Positions 7,241 through 60,858 of a DNA stretch of 64,000 bases are shown piece by piece. The notes beneath the pieces were generated by a model. It was not told the origin of the DNA. It searched no databases and saw nothing but the letters and a program-made list of their open reading frames with translations. This stretch comes from Alphaproteobacteria bacterium (GTDB lineage Bacteria > Pseudomonadota > Alphaproteobacteria > UBA828): NCBI GenBank assembly GCA_963422645.2, contig CAXXVO010000007.1:32001-96000 (forward strand). Reading direction: 5' to 3'. How positions within the stretch are numbered: the stretch's first letter is position 1; the number at the start of each line of letters is the position of its first letter. The position numbers were made by a program, and so were the translations under genes.

Positions 7241-7797
7241 GGAGCGTTATCCATGACTGACGCCGCAGTATCCAGCGGACCGGATCTTCTCGAGCGGCTG
7301 GCGGCAGGGCCTGTCATCTGCGCCGAGGGCTATCTGTTCGAGATCGAGCGCCGCGGCTATCTCTCCGCAGGCGCCTACGTGCCGGAGGCGGTTCTCGACC
7401 ACCCGGAGGTCGTGGCCCAATTGCACCGCGATTTTCTGCACGCGGGCTCCGACGTCATGCTGGCCTTCACCTACTACGCCCATCGCGAGAAGCTGCGGGT
7501 GATCGGCAGGGAGGACACGCTCGAGGAGATGAACCGCACGGCGCTCCGCCTGGCGCGGGAGGCGGCGCAGGGGAGCGACGCGCTGGTCGCCGGCAATGTG
7601 TCCAACTCCAGCATTTACGTAACTGCCCAGGTCGTCTGATTTGTCGTAACTACCCAGGTACCCCGCCGCCAGTTCTGAGTGCGTGCTGATGTTGCTTGCC
7701 GTCGGTGCCGTTTCGCCGTCGGCGCGTCGTTGATCCCCGCTTGACTGTATAGGTTCTCTCGCCTATGGGTTGCACTCTCGCATGAGAGGAGCAGCCG

Positions 7798-8466
7798 GTG
7801 GGGTATTTCGGGTCGAAGGCGACGACCGGTCTGAGCCAGGCGCTGATTGCGCTGATGCCGCCGCACTCTGTCTATATCGAGAGCCATCTTGGGGGCGGGG
7901 CGCTGATGAAGCGCAAGCCTGCGGCCATGCGCTCGATCGGGATCGACCGCGACGAGCGGGCGCTTGAGGCCTTTGGCTGCGACTACCCGGTGGAGTTGGT
8001 GCCCGGCTGCGCCCATTCCTTCCTGGCCTCGTTCCCGTTTCTGGGCCCGGAGCTGGTCTACAGCGATCCGCCCTATCTGCACGCGACCCGGCGTTCGTCG
8101 CAGCGCTACCGCTTCGAGTACGAGGAGGCCGACCACGTCGCGCTCCTCGAACTGCTCAAGGGTCTGCCCTGCCAGGTGATGGTCTCGGGCCACCCGTCTG
8201 CGCTCTATGACGAGCTGCTGGCGGGCTGGCGCCGGCTGGCGCTGCAGGTGACGACCCAGGCCCAGGTGCGGACCGAGGTCGTGTGGTTCAACTTCGCGCC
8301 TGACCGGGTGCACTGGGCGAGCTTCGCCGGCCGGAACTTCACCGAGCGCCAGTGCATCAAGCGCAAGGCGGCCAACTGGGGCCGGCGCTACGAGGCCATG
8401 CCGGCGGGCGAACGCCTGGCGGTGCTGGCCGCGATCATGGCCGTCGAGGCCGACGAGGGTTCGTGA
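7798..8466 (+). CDS. Compact N6-adenine DNA methyltransferase (Dam/D12-like, alpha motif order)
   Basis: GYFGSK, YIESHLGGGA (motif I), IGID, LVYSDPPY (motif IV), SGH/Y-x-S-x-LY; 222 aa. Confidence 0.9.
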   Translation: MGYFGSKATTGLSQALIALMPPHSVYIESHLGGGALMKRKPAAMRSIGIDRDERALEAFGCDYPVELVPGCAHSFLASFPFLGPELVYSDPPYLHATRRSSQRYRFEYEEADHVALLELLKGLPCQVMVSGHPSALYDELLAGWRRLALQVTTQAQVRTEVVWFNFAPDRVHWASFAGRNFTERQCIKRKAANWGRRYEAMPAGERLAVLAAIMAVEADEGS

Positions 8467-10004
8467 CAGTGTCGCGCTGGCACGAGGACCTCGCTGCCCA
8501 CGACGAGGCCTTCGCGTGCCTGCAGGACCTTTTCACCCCACAATCCTTCGCAATGACCGCCGTCAAAGCCATTCGGGAATGGGGCCAGAGGTTGCTGCGC
8601 CTGAGCGCGGCCCTGGTCAAGGAGAACGACGCGCTGGAGCGGGAGAACGCCCGCTTGCGCGAGCGGATCGCCGAACTCGAGCGCAGCGCCGCGCTCGACA
8701 GCACCACCAGCTCCAAGCCGCCGGCCAGCGACGGTCTGAAGAAGAAGAGCGGTGACCGGGAGAAGCGCACCCGGAGCCAGCGCGGCAAGTCCGACAGGCC
8801 CAGTGGCGGCCAGCCGGGCCACAAGGGAACTACCCTGGAGCGGACCGCGACGCCCGACCATGTCGTCGATCATGATCCGTCCGCCTGTGAGGGCTGCGGC
8901 GCGCCGCTGTCGGACGCTGACCGTCACGGAGCCCCCGTCTGCCGGCAGGTCTTCGATGTGCCCGAGCCGCAGCCCCTCGAGGTCACCGAACATCGCGGCC
9001 ATCGTTGCCTCTGCGCTGCCTGCGGCACCGTGACGACAGCCGTCTTCCCGAACGGCGTGAGCGCACCGGTCCAATACGGGCCGCGCATCACCGCGTGGGT
9101 GACCTACCTGCTGCACGCTCAGTTCATTCCCGAGAAGCGGGTCGCCGAGGTCATGAGCGACCTCTTCGCGGTCAAGCTCTCAACAGCCACCATCGTCGCC
9201 ATGGGAAGGCGCACCGCCCGGCGCTTCGAGGGCTTCCTCGATCGCCTCGCGGAGATCATCCGCACCGCAGCCCCAGTCAAACACCTCGACGAGACCGGCA
9301 TCCGCATCGCCGCCCGGACCCATTGGCTCCATGTGCTGTGCACCCCGTTGCTCACCATCCTGCGCGTCGCCACCGGGCGCAGCCACATCGACGAGAAGCT
9401 CAACGGCATCGTCATCCATGACGACTACGCCACCTACTTCGCTCTCGAGGGCGTGCGCCACGGGGCCTGCAACGCCCATCACCTGCGCGAGCTCCAAGCC
9501 CTCATCGAGATCGAGAAGGAAGACTGGGCAACGAGCACGCACCGGCTCCTCATCCGTGCCAACAGAGCCGCCCGCTTCGCCCACAAGAACGACCGCGACG
9601 TGCCCGCCTCACTGGTGGCCCGCATCTCGCGAGCCTGGGACCGCATCCTCGAACGTGCCATCGCCTCTCACGAAGAAATGCCACCGCTCCAGACCGGAAA
9701 GCGCGGACGACAAAAGCGCCGCATCGGTCACAACCTCGCCCTCCGACTCCAGAAGTACAAGGAGGGGTGCCTGCGCTTCCTCACCGATCCGCGAACCCCC
9801 TTCTCCAACAACGAGGCCGAGCGCGACCTCCGAATGGGCAAGCTGCGCCAGAAAATCTCAGGCGGCTTCCGCTCGATACAAGGCGCCCGCGACTTCGCAA
9901 ACCTGCGATCCGTCATCGCCACCGCTCGAAAACAGCGCTGGAATGTCCTCGAAACCCTGGCGCACCCCGATCCAATCCAGCTGATCCCCGTATTGCGCTT
10001 CTGA
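8463..10004 (+). CDS. IS66 transposase of element B
   Basis: SSKPPASDG, GGQPGHKG, LDETG, CNAHHLREL, SNNEAERDLR; GTG start overlaps the MTase stop (GTGA). Confidence 0.92.
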   Translation: MTVSRWHEDLAAHDEAFACLQDLFTPQSFAMTAVKAIREWGQRLLRLSAALVKENDALERENARLRERIAELERSAALDSTTSSKPPASDGLKKKSGDREKRTRSQRGKSDRPSGGQPGHKGTTLERTATPDHVVDHDPSACEGCGAPLSDADRHGAPVCRQVFDVPEPQPLEVTEHRGHRCLCAACGTVTTAVFPNGVSAPVQYGPRITAWVTYLLHAQFIPEKRVAEVMSDLFAVKLSTATIVAMGRRTARRFEGFLDRLAEIIRTAAPVKHLDETGIRIAARTHWLHVLCTPLLTILRVATGRSHIDEKLNGIVIHDDYATYFALEGVRHGACNAHHLRELQALIEIEKEDWATSTHRLLIRANRAARFAHKNDRDVPASLVARISRAWDRILERAIASHEEMPPLQTGKRGRQKRRIGHNLALRLQKYKEGCLRFLTDPRTPFSNNEAERDLRMGKLRQKISGGFRSIQGARDFANLRSVIATARKQRWNVLETLAHPDPIQLIPVLRF

Positions 10005-10201
10005 AATCCTGCGCTGCTCCGGGAAAGCGCCGCCTGACCCCTGGCTGGTCAGAACCATCAATCCATCACGTCCGAGTGCTCGGCAGAATCAGACCTGGGC
10101 AGTTACGATTTGTCATTTTGGGCCAGTGGATTGAGGCGTTTCTCGTTCGGAGTTGGTGGAAAGGGCTTGACGGGAATTTCGGGAAATGACTCAACAACGA
10201 C

Positions 10202-11707
10202 ATGAGCAATCCCGAGTCGCCGCGCGGCCCTTCGACGGGAGCAGCGCCCGAAACGCCCGCGCAGAAGATCGCCCGCCTGGAGGAGGAGAACGCCCGGCTT
10301 CGGGAGGAAAATGCCTGGCTTCGGCAGCAGAACGCGCGGCTGGAAGAGCAAGTCGCGCGTCTCGTCGAGCGCATCGAGGAGTTGGAGCGCCGTCTCGGCC
10401 TCAACAGCGGCAACAGCGGCAAGCCGCCTTCGAGCGATGGGCTGAGGAAGCCGAATTCGAAGCGGCGAACCCGAAGCCTGCGCGGCAAATCGGGCCGCAA
10501 GCCCGGTGGCCAGCCCGGCCACAAGGGCAAGACGCTGCGCCGCGCCGATCACCCGGATCGGGTGAAGGATCACGTCCCGGCTTCCTGCAAGGGATGCGGT
10601 TCGCCGCTTTCGGACGCGGCCAGGGCGGGAACGCCCGTCGCCCGCCAGGTGTTCGATCTGCCCGAGCCGAGCCCCCTGGAGGTGACCGAGCACCGGGCGC
10701 ATGCCAAGTGCTGCGGGCATTGCGGGACGGTGACCCGGGCGGCGTTCCCCGACGGGGTGTCGGCGCCGGTGCAGTACGGCCCGCGCATTGCCGGGGTGGC
10801 GGTCTACCTTCAGCACGCTCACTTCCTGCCGGAGGATCGGCTGTCGCAGGTGATGGCCGAGCTCTTCGGCGCGCCGGTGACGGCTGCGACGTTGGCGACG
10901 ATGAGCGAGAGGGCGGCCGAGCGGCTGCGGGACGCGGCCTTGCACATACAGGACCTGGCGGCGGGCACGGCGCGGGTGAAACACATGGACGAGACCGGCT
11001 TGCGGATCGGCGGTCAGACGCAGTGGCTTCATGTGATCTGCACGCCGCTGCTGGCGGCGTACCGGGTCAGCGGCAAGCGCGGCGCCCTGCTCTCGGGTGT
11101 CTCCGGCATCGTCGTGCACGATCACTGGAAGCCGTACTTCGCGATGGAAGGGGTGGAGCACGGCCTGTGCAACGCCCATCACCTGCGGGAGTTGCAGGCG
11201 CTGGTGGACATCGAAGGGGAGGCTTGGGCCCGGCGGATGCAGCAGCTCCTGCGCCGAGCCAATCGCGCCGCCCGCATCGCGCTGGACAAGGATATCGCCG
11301 TTCCGGCGAGGCTTGTGGCGCTGATCGAGCGCCGATACGACGAGATCATCGCCGATGCGCTGGCCTTTCACGAGAGCCAACCACCGTTCTCGCCTGGCAA
11401 GAGGAAGAAGCGCCGGAAGCGAAGGATCGGTCACAATCTGGCCTTGAGGCTGCGCGACCACAAATGCGCGGTGCTCCGGTTCCTGATCGACCTCGAGGTC
11501 GGGTTCACGAACAACGAGGCCGAGCGCGACCTTCGGATGATGAAGCTGCGCCAGAAGATCTCCGGGGGCTTCCGGTCCGCGCAGGGGGCCGAGAACTTCG
11601 CCATCCTGCGCAGCGTCATCACCACCGCCAGAAAGCAGGGCTGGAATATCATCGAAGCCCTGACCAGCCCATCGGATCGGCTCATCGCCACCGTCAAGTG
11701 CGCGTAA
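10202..11707 (+). CDS. IS66 transposase (element A copy 2)
   Basis: Identical to the other copies except NSGKPP instead of NSVKPP. Confidence 0.95.
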   Translation: MSNPESPRGPSTGAAPETPAQKIARLEEENARLREENAWLRQQNARLEEQVARLVERIEELERRLGLNSGNSGKPPSSDGLRKPNSKRRTRSLRGKSGRKPGGQPGHKGKTLRRADHPDRVKDHVPASCKGCGSPLSDAARAGTPVARQVFDLPEPSPLEVTEHRAHAKCCGHCGTVTRAAFPDGVSAPVQYGPRIAGVAVYLQHAHFLPEDRLSQVMAELFGAPVTAATLATMSERAAERLRDAALHIQDLAAGTARVKHMDETGLRIGGQTQWLHVICTPLLAAYRVSGKRGALLSGVSGIVVHDHWKPYFAMEGVEHGLCNAHHLRELQALVDIEGEAWARRMQQLLRRANRAARIALDKDIAVPARLVALIERRYDEIIADALAFHESQPPFSPGKRKKRRKRRIGHNLALRLRDHKCAVLRFLIDLEVGFTNNEAERDLRMMKLRQKISGGFRSAQGAENFAILRSVITTARKQGWNIIEALTSPSDRLIATVKCA

Positions 11708-12749
11708 GCTCACCTGGCACGGGTTCTCCAACAGCGGAGCCATTCTCATAAACGATCATGGTCGACGCCGTGCTGGACCACCCCATAGAATGAAAATCGG
11801 TGCCCGTCGCGCGGGCGGACTTCGGGCCACATCGGGGTAGCTTACCGGTCGCAGTCCGCAAGAGGGGCATCGTGAGCTGTGAAACCCGGCGACCACAGAG
11901 GAGCACACGGGCGTCGCGTGGGTAGCGTTGTGCCGAATCCCAGAGAATTTTCACAGCAAGAACCTGGGCAGTTACACATTTACGTGGACGGCGACGCCGA
12001 GTCCGCCCGCGAGGTGCGCACGATGTTCGACGAGCAGGTGGCCTGGGCCGTCGACGAGGGCGTGGATTACATCGTCGCCGAGACCATCTCCTTCGTCGGC
12101 GAGGCCCTGCTCGCGCTTGAAGCGATCAAGGCGGCCGGCCAGACGGCAGTGATCAACCTCGCCGTCCACCGCGACCCGACCACGCGGGACGGATTGAGCC
12201 TGGCCGAGGCAGCCAAGCGCCTGGAAGACGCGGGCGCCGACGTGGTCGGGCTCAACTGCACGCGCGGCCCGGCCACCATGCTGCCGCTGCTCGGCCCCAT
12301 TCGCGAGGCGGTGAGCTGCCACGTCGCGGCGCTGCCGGTGGCCTACCGCACCACCGCCGAGCAACCCAGCTTCCAGGCCCTGGAGGATCCCGGCTGCGCC
12401 TGTCTGCCGCGGGAGCGGCCCTTCCCCACCGCGCTCGACCCCTTCACCGTCAATCGTTACGAGATCGAGAAATTCACCAGGGACGCGCAGGCGCTCGGCG
12501 TCAACTATCTCGGCGTCTGCTGCGGCGCGTCCCCCCACCACATCCGCAGCATGGCGGAGGCCCTCGGCCGGCACCCGCCGGGGAGCAGGTACTCGCCCGA
12601 CATGTCCACACACGCCTTCTACGGCACCTCGGACAAGGTCCCGTCCGAATACAAGGACTTCGCGAAGCACCTTTAGGAGGGGTCGGGCACCAGGGCTGCG
12701 GGAGACGCCGCACGCCCGCGTAACCATCGTGAACTGGGAGAACATGTCC

Positions 12750-13803
12750 ATGACTGACGCCGAAGCGTCTGGCGTATCGAGTCCTGACTTCGACGGTTGG
12801 GCCGGTCCTCTGCGCAGAGGGCTATCTGTTCGAGCTCGAGCGCAGCGGCTATGTCGCCGCCGGCCCCTATGTGCCCGAGGCAGTGCTGGAACACCCCGAT
12901 GCGGTGATCCGGCTGCACCGTGATTTCCTGCGCGCGGGCTCCGACGTGATGCTCGCTTTCACTTACTACGCACACCGGGAAAAGCTCAGGCTGATCGGCA
13001 AAGAGGGCGCACTGGAAGAGATCAACCGCACCGCGATCCGTCTTGCGCGGGAGGCGGCGCGGGAGGGCGACGCTCTGGTCGCCGGCAACGTCTGCAACTC
13101 CAACATCTACGTGGACGGCGAGACCGAGTCCGCGCGGCGGGTGCGTGCCATGTTCGACGAGCAAGTGGGCTGGGCCGTGGACGAGGGTGTGGACTTCATC
13201 GTTGCCGAAACGATCTCTTACGTCAGCGAGGCGCTGTTGGCGCTGGAGGCGATCAAGGAGGCAGGCCTGCCGGCGGTGATCAACCTCGCCATCTTCCGTG
13301 ACCCGCTGACGCGCGAAGGACTGACCCCGGCCGAGGCCTGCAAGCGCCTGGAGGATGCTGGCGCCGACGTTGTGGGACTCAACTGCGCGCGCGGCCCGGC
13401 CACCATGCTGCCCTTGCTCGGGGAAATCCGCGAAACGGTGAGCTGCCACGTCGCGGCGCTCCCGGTGGCCTACCGCACCACCGAGGACGAGCCGACCTTC
13501 CTGTCGCTCAGCGATTCCGAGTGCGTTTGCATACCGGAAGAACGCCCCTTCCCCACGGCGCTCGACCCCTTCACCTGCAACCGCTATGAGATTGCGGAAT
13601 TCACCAGAGACGCGCGGGCACTCGGCGTCAACTATCTTGGCGTCTGTTGCGGCGCGGCACCCCACCATATCCGCAGCATGGCGGAGGCGCTCGGCCGCCA
13701 GCCGCCGGCGAGCAAGTACTCGCCCGACATGACTCGGCACGCCTACTTGGGGACCGTCGACGAAATCCCGGCTGCGAACAGGTCGTTCGCCAGGTACTTG
13801 TAG
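12750..13803 (+). pseudogene. Homocysteine S-methyltransferase (BHMT-like), paralog 2, with a 5' frameshift
   Basis: ATG 12750 (MTDA..., as in paralog 1) is out of frame with VLCAEGYLFELERSGY...GLNC...GVCCG; the shift lies between 12750 and about 12805. Confidence 0.75.
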
Positions 13804-31266: not shown

Positions 31267-32523
31267 ATGCATCTGCAAGAACTCAAGACCCAGACCCCTA
31301 CCCAGCTGATCGACTACGCCAAAGAGCTCGAGATCGAGAACGCGAACTCGATGCGCCGGCAGGACCTGATGTTCGCGATCCTCCGGCAGCTTGCCGAGAA
31401 CGATCAGGCGATCTTCGGCTCAGGCGTACTGGAGACCTTGCAGGACGGCTTCGGCTTCCTGCGCTCGCCGGAATCCAACTACCTGCCCGGCCCCGACGAC
31501 ATCTACGTGAGCCCGAGCCAGATCTGCCGCTTCGGGCTCAGGACCGGCGACACTCTGGAGGGCCAGATCCGGGCGCCCCGCGAGGGCGAACGCTACTTCG
31601 CGCTGCTCAAGCTTAACAACATAAACTTCGACCCGCCGGAGAATCTCCGCCACAAGGTCAACTTCGACAACCTGACTCCGCTCTACCCCGAGCAGCGCTT
31701 CAGCATGGAGGTCGCCGACCCCGCACGGAAAGACACCACCAGCCGCATCCTCGACATCGTGGCGCCGCTCGGCAAAGGGCAGCGGGCACTGATCGTTGCT
31801 CCGCCGCGCACCGGCAAGACCATGATGCTGCAGAACATCGCGCACTCGATCGAGGCGAACCACCCCGAGGCCTTCCTCATCGTGCTGCTGGTGGACGAGC
31901 GGCCCGAGGAGGTCACTGACATGGACCGCTCGGTGAGGGGCGAGGTGGTGAGTTCGACCTTCGACGAGCCGGCGACGCGCCACGTGCAGGTGGCGGAGAT
32001 GGTGATCGAGAAGGCCAAGAGGCTGGTGGAGCACAAACGCGACGTGGTGATTCTGCTGGATTCCATCACCCGCCTTGCCCGCGCCTACAACACCGTTGTG
32101 CCCTCCTCAGGCAAGGTGCTGACTGGTGGGGTGGACGCCAACGCGCTGCAGCGGCCCAAGCGCTTCTTCGGCGCCGCCCGCAACATCGAGCACGGCGGCT
32201 CGCTCACGATAATCGCGACCGCGCTTATCGATACCGGCTCGCGCATGGACGAGGTGATCTTCGAGGAGTTCAAGGGCACCGGAAACTCCGAGATCATTTT
32301 GGACCGCAAGCTTGCCGACAAGCGCACCTGGCCCAGCATGGACATCGCCCGCTCCGGCACCCGCAAGGAGGAACTGCTGGTCGACCGCGCAACGCTCGGC
32401 AAGATGTGGGTGCTGCGGCGGATCCTCTCGCCCATGGGCACGGTAGATGCCATGGAGTTCCTGGTCGACAAGCTCAAGACGACCAAGACCAACGACGAAT
32501 TCTACGCCTCGATGAACACGTAA
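31267..32523 (+). CDS. rho: Transcription termination factor Rho
   Basis: [38 protein letters not shown]. Confidence 0.98.
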
Positions 32524-60129: not shown

Positions 60130-60858
60130 TCAGGAGCGGTTCTTGAAGCGCCAGCTCTCGTTGCCGGTCTCGATGATCTCGCAATGATGGGTGAGGCGAT
60201 CGAGCAGCGCTGTGGTCATCTTGGGGTCGCCGAAGACGGATGGCCATTCGCCGAAGGCGAGGTTTGTGGTGATGACGATCGAGGTGCGCTCGTAGAGCCG
60301 GCTCATCAGATGGAAGAGCAGCTGCCCACCGGCCTGGGCGAAGGGCAGGTAGCCGAGCTCGTCGAGGATGACGAAGTCGCGGCGGACGAGCTGGTCTGCA
60401 GTGCGGCCCTGGCGTCCGGCGCGAAGCTCGGCCTCGAGGAGGTTGACCAGGTCGACGACGTTGTAGCACCGGCCGCGCGCGCCCTTGCGGATGCAGGACC
60501 GCGCGATGGCGACGGCGAGATGGGTCTTGCCGGTACCGGTGCCGCCGACCAGCACGATGTTGCGTTTGCCCTCGAGGAAGCCGCCGCCGGCGAGCTCCTG
60601 GATCAGGGGCTCGTTGACCGGCGAGGCGGCGAAGTCGAAGTCGGCCAGCTCCTTGACCGTCGGCAGCTTGGCGGAGGCCATCTGGTACTTGATCGAGCGG
60701 GCCCTCTTGTCGGCGATCTCGACCTGCAGCAGCGTACCGATGATCTGTTGCACCGGATGGCGGCGCTTGAGCCCGTCGGCAAGGATGTCGTCGTAAGCGG
60801 CGCGCATACCTGCGAGCTTCAGCTGGGTCATCATCTCCAGCACATCATGACGCTCCAT
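60130..60858 (-). CDS. istB: IS21 helper ATPase
   Basis: [29 protein letters not shown]. Confidence 0.95.

Follow-up and report, generated by a model that had tools for sequence, protein, structure and literature searches.

A 64,000-nt stretch of the genome of an alphaproteobacterium (positions 32,001 to 96,000 of contig CAXXVO010000007.1, assembly GCA_963422645.2; the whole stretch is referred to here as the window) contains, at 7646-10106, an active insertion sequence (IS) of the IS66 family, of the single-transposase kind that lacks tnpA and tnpB. Ahead of its transposase this element carries a gene for a protein with the fold of a DNA adenine methyltransferase (MTase). We conclude from sequence comparison that the promoter, inverted-repeat operator, leader and open reading frame (ORF) of this gene form a self-contained cassette that has been swapped among IS of at least three transposase families, and that the protein belongs with the Upf31 family of plasmids. 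By analogy with Upf31, we propose with moderate confidence that the protein is a trans-acting autorepressor of the cassette promoter, working through a two-armed operator, which throttles the coupled transposase and is relieved where the protein is absent. The usual picture of an IS is a transposase and no more than a helper specific to its family, but IS66, IS701 and ISKra4 elements all carry this one conserved gene, which brings its own promoter and operator.

The element was delimited by direct reading of the sequence and is 2461 bp long. Its left terminal repeat, GTAACTACCCAGGT, and the reverse complement of its right terminal repeat, GTAACTGCCCAGGT, are identical at 13 of their first 14 bases, and a perfect 8-bp target duplication, GATTTGTC, stands on either side, at 7638-7645 and 10107-10114. 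Terminal inverted repeats and an 8-bp target duplication are traits of the IS66 family. The features of the element are as follows.

7638..7645, no strand: left copy of the 8-bp target duplication GATTTGTC, from sequence reading
7646..7662, + strand: left terminal inverted repeat of the MTase-bearing IS66 element; the same end is found in 14/14 full-length copies
7741..7769, + strand: putative cassette promoter and operator, with TTGACT (-35), ATAG at 7749-7752, a 10-nt spacer, and CTAT at 7763-7766 over TATGGG; a pattern found 79 times in the genome
7768..7796, + strand: predicted 5' leader hairpin that pairs the Shine-Dalgarno-like GAGAGGAG, from a single-sequence fold
7798..8466, + strand: Upf31-family, Dam-fold MTase-like gene of 222 aa; core without target-recognition domain at residues 1-168, C-terminal helical hairpin at 181-221
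8463..10004, + strand: IS66-family DDE transposase, starting at GTG 8463 (GTGA overlap) or GTG 8469
10090..10106, - strand: right terminal inverted repeat
10107..10114, no strand: right copy of the target duplication GATTTGTC

Between the ends lie two ORFs only, on the same strand and with the MTase-like gene first; neither tnpA nor tnpB was found inside 7646-10106. For this reason we file the element under the tnpA/tnpB-less subgroup of IS66, which we take to be the ISBst12 group of ISfinder. Like that subgroup it has a single DDE_Tnp_IS66 transposase with a zf-IS66 domain, an 8-bp duplication and ends that start with GTAA, but it departs from the subgroup in its extra upstream gene, its own promoter and its overlapping transposase start. 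The TGA of the MTase-like ORF (8464-8466) overlaps an in-frame transposase GTG at 8463, forming GTGA (8463-8466), and a second in-frame GTG follows at 8469. Within the transposase, whose frame ends at 10004, we recognise DUF6444, zf-IS66 and DDE_Tnp_IS66 domains; it matches PF03050 (DDE_Tnp_IS66) with E 2.8e-38 and 132.4 bits against a cut-off of 23.1, and the NCBIfam model for IS66 transposases, NF033517, with 284.5 bits against a cut-off of 180. An earlier reading made from the sequence alone had placed MTase and transposase together inside both inverted repeats and a perfect 8-bp duplication, had the two genes overlapping by GTGA, and had put the MTase in the position of tnpA/tnpB. All three statements agree with what we see, and the GTGA junction is kept in a second subfamily, described below.

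The genome from which the window comes (5.9 Mb in 23 contigs, 67% G+C) contains 91 MTase segments detectable by tblastn. The 2461-bp subfamily has 14 full-length copies, among them 11 with perfect and distinct 8-bp duplications; the MTase is intact in 14/14 and the transposase is at least 500 aa long in 13/14. A sister subfamily of 2508 bp, in which the MTase is 87% and the transposase 68-76% identical to those of the window element (tblastn), has 36 full-length copies with 22 perfect, distinct 8-bp duplications, an intact MTase in 36/36 and a transposase of at least 500 aa in 34/36. The two subfamilies together thus hold a non-transposase gene between IS ends in 50 full-length copies, 33 of which have their own perfect duplication and all of which have an intact MTase ORF (50/50); an IS with such a passenger gene is known as a tIS. 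The MTase has therefore moved as part of the IS, as the sequence-only reading supposed, and with 14 and 36 copies of the same two-gene layout the idea of a one-off capture is refuted. Adding 66 full-length elements of an MTase-less relative, the genome has 116 full-length IS66-family elements, which occupy ∼250 kb or ∼4% of it.

Most of the 33 perfect target duplications are 8-mers rich in A+T (for instance AAAATTTT, CAAATTTT and TATTATTC) in a genome of 67% G+C, as if A+T-rich targets, among them the ends of other IS copies, were preferred. Three full-length copies have no matching duplications (C15:4379-6839, C3:145017-147478 and C5:63627-66087), and one of the three has the same right flank as a copy on contig C11. 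Copies of this sort are likely to be products of recombination between copies. The MTase gene is present in 3/20 congeneric genomes (with 1, 16 and 2 matches), the other 17/20 having no match at E <= 1e-20. It was found in 0/4 genomes of other genera of the same family and in 1/16 sampled outside the family, and in an even sample of the class 3/400 other genomes have a match of the IS clade (E <= 1e-90). Such a patchy distribution is typical of horizontally acquired elements with local bursts.

The cassette in other insertion sequences and its promoter

A scan of species-representative genomes returned 133 relatives, from which 80 loci in ∼24 assemblies were kept. The assemblies are labelled as Alpha- and Gammaproteobacteria, Dehalococcoidia, Binatia, Tectimicrobiota, Planctomycetota and others, but most are metagenome-assembled genomes, and taxon labels on short contigs need care. 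In 70/80 loci an IS66-type transposase match lies no more than 330 nt downstream of the MTase gene. Five of these 70 have a transposase that is 27-30% identical to that of the window, an MTase that is 69-75% identical, and a differing end, GTAACTACTCACCCC; by sequence we assign them to a second deep IS66 clade. Another six loci are IS701-family elements of 2.78 kb, with perfect terminal repeats and with 3-bp TNA duplications that differ, at differing sites. Their mutual nucleotide identity is 95-99.9% (all six compared), and the family assignment comes from Pfam DDE_5 in the three of the six that were scanned and from NF049999 in the one scanned with it (E 1.4e-91, 307 bits, cut-off 170). One locus is an ISKra4-family element of 2.43 kb (NF033572, E 6.5e-103, 345 bits, cut-off 205) whose inverted ends are 23 nt long and whose duplication is AAATGACA; further contigs in the same assembly are broken off at the ends of this element.

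Three loci are left (L080, L081 and L092), and all of them are IS66-type remnants. We considered IS630 as a fourth scaffold for the cassette and rejected it: the IS630-type transposase at L080 belongs to a separate 1.18-kb element that has more than 40 copies without an MTase gene, the stretch common to L080 and L081 extends over only 828 bp around the MTase gene, and the left ends are IS66-type. IS91 was likewise rejected, the Y2 transposase at L092 being 1.6 kb downstream and an IS66-type end preceding the cassette. In the genome of L080, copies of the IS630-type element abut fragments of the MTase gene (for example at C1:594118-595756 and 2927727-2929411), and it seems that this 1.18-kb element has repeatedly hit MTase-bearing IS66 elements. 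In another genome, a 574-aa ORF with an N6_N4_Mtase domain stands just upstream of an MTase-bearing IS66 copy (L051:1708-3432), which is probably a coincidence in a region rich in mobile genetic elements.

Nucleotide homology between the scaffolds does not extend outside the part that corresponds to 7763-8484 of the window, which comprises the leader, the ORF and the next 18 bases. The MTase gene is always upstream of the transposase and on the same strand, with a spacing that runs from a 4-nt overlap to a gap of ∼130 nt between the ORFs as called. In a tree of 42 sequences (L083, a partial row, was left out, and rooting on the IncP-like group is assumed) the IS-borne MTases form one clade with support of 0.965, apart from the plasmid and viral ones; those borne by IS701 elements nest among the IS66-borne, and the one borne by ISKra4 nests in the second IS66 group. 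Synonymous divergence between the two local subfamilies is 0.32 for the MTase gene and 0.62 for the transposase gene, half as much in the former, and this fits exchange of the cassette. We found no description of Upf31-type genes inside insertion sequences in the open-access literature.

The upstream regions of IS-borne cassettes have a common pattern: TTGAC, three bases, ATAG, ten variable bases and CTAT(GG), at 7741-7769 in the window. The arms of the presumed operator, four to six bases each, are reverse complements of each other, (C)ATAG-N10-CTAT(G), and the inverted repeat lies over the promoter spacer and the -10. Inspected by eye, promoter and operator are kept in 29/29 distinct upstream regions. 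The pattern occurs 79 times in the window's own genome, where ∼0 would be expected, and 78 of the 79 stand in front of an MTase gene. A scan of metagenome contigs for the same pattern gave at least 119 stretches; 6 of the 80 examined have an MTase gene behind the match, and the remaining matches look like chance. Within the element CATAG/CTATG is found only at the promoter and once inside the MTase gene, at 8205, so that there are no operator half-sites at the IS ends.

Relatives that are not in an IS have the same arrangement. CATAG-N10-CTATG stands upstream of two plasmid-borne homologues (L011 and L013), occurs twice in the viral contig L145, the second time with one mismatch, and is present as three tandem copies before the homologue in the viral contig L106, upstream of position 2501. 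L153 contains three copies of a 16-base repeat unit with GCGATG at its end, and the L106 and L153 arrays may recall the clustered repeats reported for IncP-1beta plasmids. The IncP-1 gene upf31.0 (L012) has CAGCATCG-N10-CGATGCTG after TTGACA, in the same register as in the window. More distant relatives keep the geometry with both arms changed together, as CATCG/CGATG, TATCG/CGATA, CACCG/CGGTG or CACAG/CTGTG. A perfect YANNG-N10-CNNTR repeat, always with a spacer of 10 nt, is found in 9/75 distinct viral upstream regions, compared with a mean of 0.65 and a maximum of 4 in shuffled sequences (n=200) and with 2/75 in-gene segments.

The leader is predicted to fold into a hairpin that pairs the ribosome-binding purines (-17.7 kcal/mol, z -2.95, 2/200 shuffles as good). 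This stability belongs to the single-sequence fold only: RNAalifold on 18 leaders gave -0.06 kcal/mol, with double changes in 2/6 pairs, and did not demonstrate covariation.

The protein and its relatives outside insertion sequences

The MTase-like ORF (7798-8466) starts with GTG and encodes 222 aa, with GGG at residues 32-34 and DPPY at residues 90-93. It is not readily classified by profile. Pfam gave no match at E 0.01, the Dam-family profiles PF02086 (14.5 bits, cut-off 22) and TIGR00571 (25.8 bits, cut-off 114.85) both fall below their cut-offs, and the match to the latter (dam) is limited to the C-terminal third of the profile, around DPPY. PADLOC and PHROGs gave generic, partial methyltransferase matches only, and a sequence search of the PDB gave nothing below E 0.35. 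Homologues are numerous: a word-indexed search returned 2807 proteins at E <= 0.001, with 70-96% identity among the 120 matches listed, and an exhaustive search returned 6029 clusters at 50% identity, 508 of them at E <= 1e-30. In an alignment of 56 sequences G5, H23, G32, D90, P91, P92 and H113 are invariant, and DPPY is kept in 118/119 close homologues with a length of 200 aa or more, as it is in 109/114 cluster representatives.

An AlphaFold model (predicted local distance difference test, pLDDT, 91.8; predicted template-modelling score, pTM, 0.86) was obtained with high confidence. Residues 1-168 of the model superpose on E. coli Dam (2g1p) with Z 18.4 and a root-mean-square deviation of 2.3, and T4 Dam (1yf3) and DpnM (2dpm) follow with Z 18.0 and 17.5. 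These D12-class enzymes are the best structural matches, and have in common with the model the motif order X, I, IV and DPPY. Since the 149 aligned residues span residues 8-270 of E. coli Dam, the target-recognition domain of Dam, about 100 residues, is without a counterpart in the model. In Dam this domain lies between motif I and DPPY, whereas the window protein has a spacing of ∼55 residues there. An extra two-helix hairpin at residues 181-221 is rich in basic residues and, in the model, is unmatched by any structure. The superposition bears out the sequence-only reading in its remark that the short motif I-DPPY segment leaves little room for a target-recognition domain. The model thus depicts a Dam catalytic core without a target-recognition domain but with a C-terminal basic helical hairpin, and "Dam-like fold" is the accurate label for it, given that the Dam profile cut-offs were missed and the recognition domain is lacking.

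The ratio of nonsynonymous to synonymous substitution rates for the MTase is 0.13-0.31 in 9/10 comparisons and 0.57 against L031; for the transposase, between subfamilies, it is 0.25. These values indicate that the MTase gene is under purifying selection.

The closest studied relative is Upf31. The window protein is 44% identical over 224 aa to upf31.0 of an IncP plasmid (E 1e-62), the C-terminal domain included. Plasmid homologues of 44-54% identity, annotated as orphan "DNA adenine methylase", amount to 198 records, 134 of them typed as conjugative, and no transposase stands beside the homologue in the three plasmids examined. Temperate phages (33-35 kb) and many viral contigs have homologues as well. 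In likeness to the window protein, the IncP-1beta Upf31 proteins (pBP136, R751) have 224-225 aa, a Dam-like core, GGG and DPPY, and a C-terminal basic helical domain, and the promoter has TTGAC(A) followed by the inverted repeat in the same register with a 10-nt spacer. This full-length similarity, together with an inverted-repeat operator in the gene's own promoter (the latter as judged from sequence), is why we place the window protein in the Upf31 family. There are differences also: Upf31 is a single plasmid backbone gene without a transposase beside it, its operator arms are CAGCATCG rather than the (C)CATAG of the IS-borne cassette, and the IS-borne proteins form a separate clade.

Upf31 of pBP136 has been studied by Elg et al. 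(2025, Mol Biol Evol msaf062, PMC11997246), and what follows is taken from the passages of that article on upf31. A 68-bp upstream fragment has promoter activity, and in a xylE reporter assay the activity of this promoter falls from 4.76 XylE units to 0.09 in the presence of full-length Upf31; inverted CAGCATCG repeats are singled out in the article as the probable operator. Residues 173-225 make up the C-terminal domain, which is modelled as a dimerisation domain and is needed for the phenotype, and Upf31 is proposed to act on the KorB regulon of the plasmid. In the same passages, Upf31 gave no Dam-type protection, and sequencing with the single-molecule real-time (SMRT) method in methylation-free E. 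coli detected no modification. Repression of upf31p was assayed with the full-length protein, those passages including no catalytic mutant. The homologue search described there used BLASTN on a plasmid database only, and the string "transpos" occurs four times in the main text, the two occurrences read in context being about transposition of other plasmid functions (toxin-antitoxin, for example) and not about upf31 homologues. IS provide a second natural context for this poorly understood plasmid family.

The sequence-only reading had tentatively likened the protein to prophage-borne low-specificity enzymes of the M.EcoGI and M.EcoGII type. The comparison is not supported, the non-specific or low-specificity enzymes that could be checked being of other kinds. 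M.EcoGIX and M.BceJIII are beta-class (PMC7736820). Hia5 (PMC3299994) is 281 aa long and has the aspartate of motif IV at residue 194, and so keeps a long segment before motif IV. These enzymes and Hin1523 (PMC3299994) resemble the window protein in being orphan plasmid or prophage enzymes with DPPY, and have an anti-restriction role; the descriptions of M.EcoGIX, M.BceJIII and Hia5 set them apart from the window protein.

Autorepression and the alternatives

InsA of IS1 and OrfA of the IS3 family are IS-encoded repressors whose genes lie ahead of the transposase. In our proposal the MTase-like protein would do comparable work. Probably dimerised through the C-terminal hairpin, it would bind the inverted repeat of the cassette promoter, and binding would shut the only recognisable promoter of the two-gene unit. 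Synthesis of the transposase would fall too, because its start overlaps or closely follows the MTase stop. Since the protein diffuses, all copies would be mutually repressed, each copy acting on every other as a copy-number-dependent brake, and a copy entering a cell without the protein would give a burst of expression. Both the repression of the window promoter and its effect on the transposase are inferred from Upf31. As in InsA/OrfA systems and in the Dam-controlled elements IS10, IS50 and IS903, a small first gene or a methyl mark would limit the transposase, in trans on all copies; unlike InsA and OrfA, the candidate regulator has an MTase fold, would act at its own promoter and operator rather than at an IS end, and is interchangeable between IS families. 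The sequence-only reading had offered, among the purposes of an IS-borne MTase, transposition control and anti-restriction. We favour the former, although by way of autorepression of the shared promoter as for Upf31, while the latter is weakened by the negative SMRT result for Upf31 and by the 17/20 congeners without the gene.

Several observations make us cautious about this proposal. Repression is extrapolated from a plasmid protein that is 44% identical. A mere repressor would not need DPPY, so the near-complete conservation of this motif argues that catalysis probably matters and that the repressor account is incomplete. The MTase-less sister IS66 has 66 full-length copies in the same genome, so that an IS can proliferate without the cassette, and it is not obvious that having the cassette curbs proliferation any better. 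Beyond the nine viral regions with a perfect operator repeat, most relatives have imperfect arms or none, and operator arms 15 bp apart, centre to centre, are unusual for a dimeric repressor. A simple sigma-70 consensus scan of 7600-10250, which is a weak test, gave no promoters and no terminators; it misses the cassette promoter because the -10-like hexamer is TATGGG. Relatives of the element at 85-99% likeness are present in contigs from four RNA libraries in three studies, and two of these contigs bridge the MTase/transposase junction, but contigs cannot show transcription, starts or strand.

If the enzyme is active, two other roles come into consideration. It may be a low-specificity N6-adenine MTase that pre-methylates the DNA carrying the IS, such that plasmids and phages leaving an IS-rich cell escape being restricted in their next host and take the IS along. 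The intact catalytic and S-adenosylmethionine-binding motifs (D90, P91 and P92 are invariant in 56/56 sequences), purifying selection and the want of a target-recognition domain, which fits low specificity, are all in keeping with such a role, as are the conjugative typing of 134/198 plasmid records and the homologues in temperate phages. We nevertheless consider it unlikely. An IS cannot transfer itself between cells, its promoter looks tightly self-repressed, no endonuclease partner lies inside the element, and the small number of congeners and class members that have the gene speaks against it, as do the results with Upf31, which gave neither SMRT signal nor Dam-type protection in the upf31 passages of PMC11997246. 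The other role is that of an epigenetic switch, in which the enzyme would methylate adenines of its own operator, one arm per strand, full methylation silencing the promoter and passage of a replication fork, or entry in unmethylated form, reopening it briefly. Transposase expression would thereby be coupled to replication or arrival, much as host Dam does for IS10, IS50 and IS903, where such control is established (work cited in the discussion section of PMC9296519). Conserved adenines are present in each arm, and because the arms are inverted both strands would carry the mark; within the IS clade, the -10-like hexamer has the A of CTATGG as its second base. A switch of this kind would account for the conserved DPPY, and a long or rare target would explain why SMRT motif finding drew a blank for Upf31. 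Against it, there is no direct sign of methylation in the family, and repression of upf31p is known, in those same passages of PMC11997246, from the full-length protein only. Phage relatives may have CGGTG, CTGTG or TGGTG as the downstream arm, none of which contains an adenine on the top strand, and what was said of the -10 adenine can thus not hold generally. We regard an epigenetic switch of this kind as quite unlikely.

It is also conceivable that the cassette is a selfish hitch-hiker, an autonomous, autoregulated gene that rides in IS, plasmids and phages without effect on transposition and sits by the left IS end because cargo is tolerated there. The cassette does have its own promoter and regulation, the family also lives outside IS, and in one and the same genome the MTase-less sister does as well or better, with 66 full-length copies as against 14 and 36. 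A tolerated passenger would not, however, be expected at the same position, on the same strand and at close spacing with transposases of three unrelated families, and in both deep clades of IS66, nor with the GTGA overlap kept in both local subfamilies and its ORF intact in 50/50 full-length copies; moreover, the sigma-70 scan, weak test though it is, recognised no other promoter for the transposase. This explanation we judge to be very unlikely.

Autorepression and methylation might also be combined. The cassette could be a plug-in control module in which a Dam-fold protein without a target-recognition domain both binds and methylates the two-armed operator. It would then form a heritable switch, sensitive to replication and entry, that keeps the transposase silent in an established host, brakes copy number in trans and allows a burst in a naive cell, and this circuit would have been borrowed repeatedly from plasmids and phages by unrelated IS families. 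We offer this as a tentative idea that is unlikely to hold in full. A strictly conserved catalytic site, in a family in which no methylation was found for Upf31, poses a sharply testable question. If either the trans-acting brake or the entry-triggered switch is true, it would constitute a regulation of transposition that is independent of the IS family, and would help to explain how genomes tolerate more than 100 copies of one IS family. It is important to note that automatic annotation labels these genes "DNA adenine methylase", and that surveys of methylomes or restriction-modification in IS-rich genomes will for that reason count dozens of spurious orphan methylases.

Nesting and surroundings

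The MTase-bearing IS is itself inserted in another IS, a related IS66 element without an MTase, at a point 27 bp in from the left end of the latter. The features concerned are the following.

7253..7618, + strand: 5' portion of a homocysteine S-methyltransferase-like gene that the outer IS has split (rest at 11976-12676)
7619..7645, + strand: first 27 bp of the outer, MTase-less IS66 element, from the inverted-repeat pair
10115..11975, + strand: remainder of the outer single-ORF IS66 element (transposase at 10202-11707)

The left end of the outer element, at 7619, pairs as an inverted repeat with a partner end at 11962-11975, and joining 7619-7645 to 10115-11975 rebuilds a single-ORF IS66 element of 1888 bp, a plain member of the tnpA/tnpB-less kind. 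The nesting is proved by the 66 uninterrupted full-length copies elsewhere in the genome that the rebuilt element matches at an identity of at least 93%. The outer IS in turn interrupts the homocysteine S-methyltransferase-like gene, which breaks off at 7618 and resumes at 11976. An intact paralogue at 12754-13803, directly beside it, shows the uninterrupted reading, and with this paralogue adjoining, the loss of the split gene may be buffered.

The sequence-only reading had also spoken of an altered host methylome near the origin. A location near the origin is unsupported, as dnaA sits on a different contig (C5). Within the window, a 246-aa ORF at ∼60268-60558 (C8:92268-92558) has a weak match to DnaA-like AAA+ proteins; it recurs with an identical score at ∼70 other places in the genome, and may well be the IstB helper of an IS21-type element that has greatly expanded.

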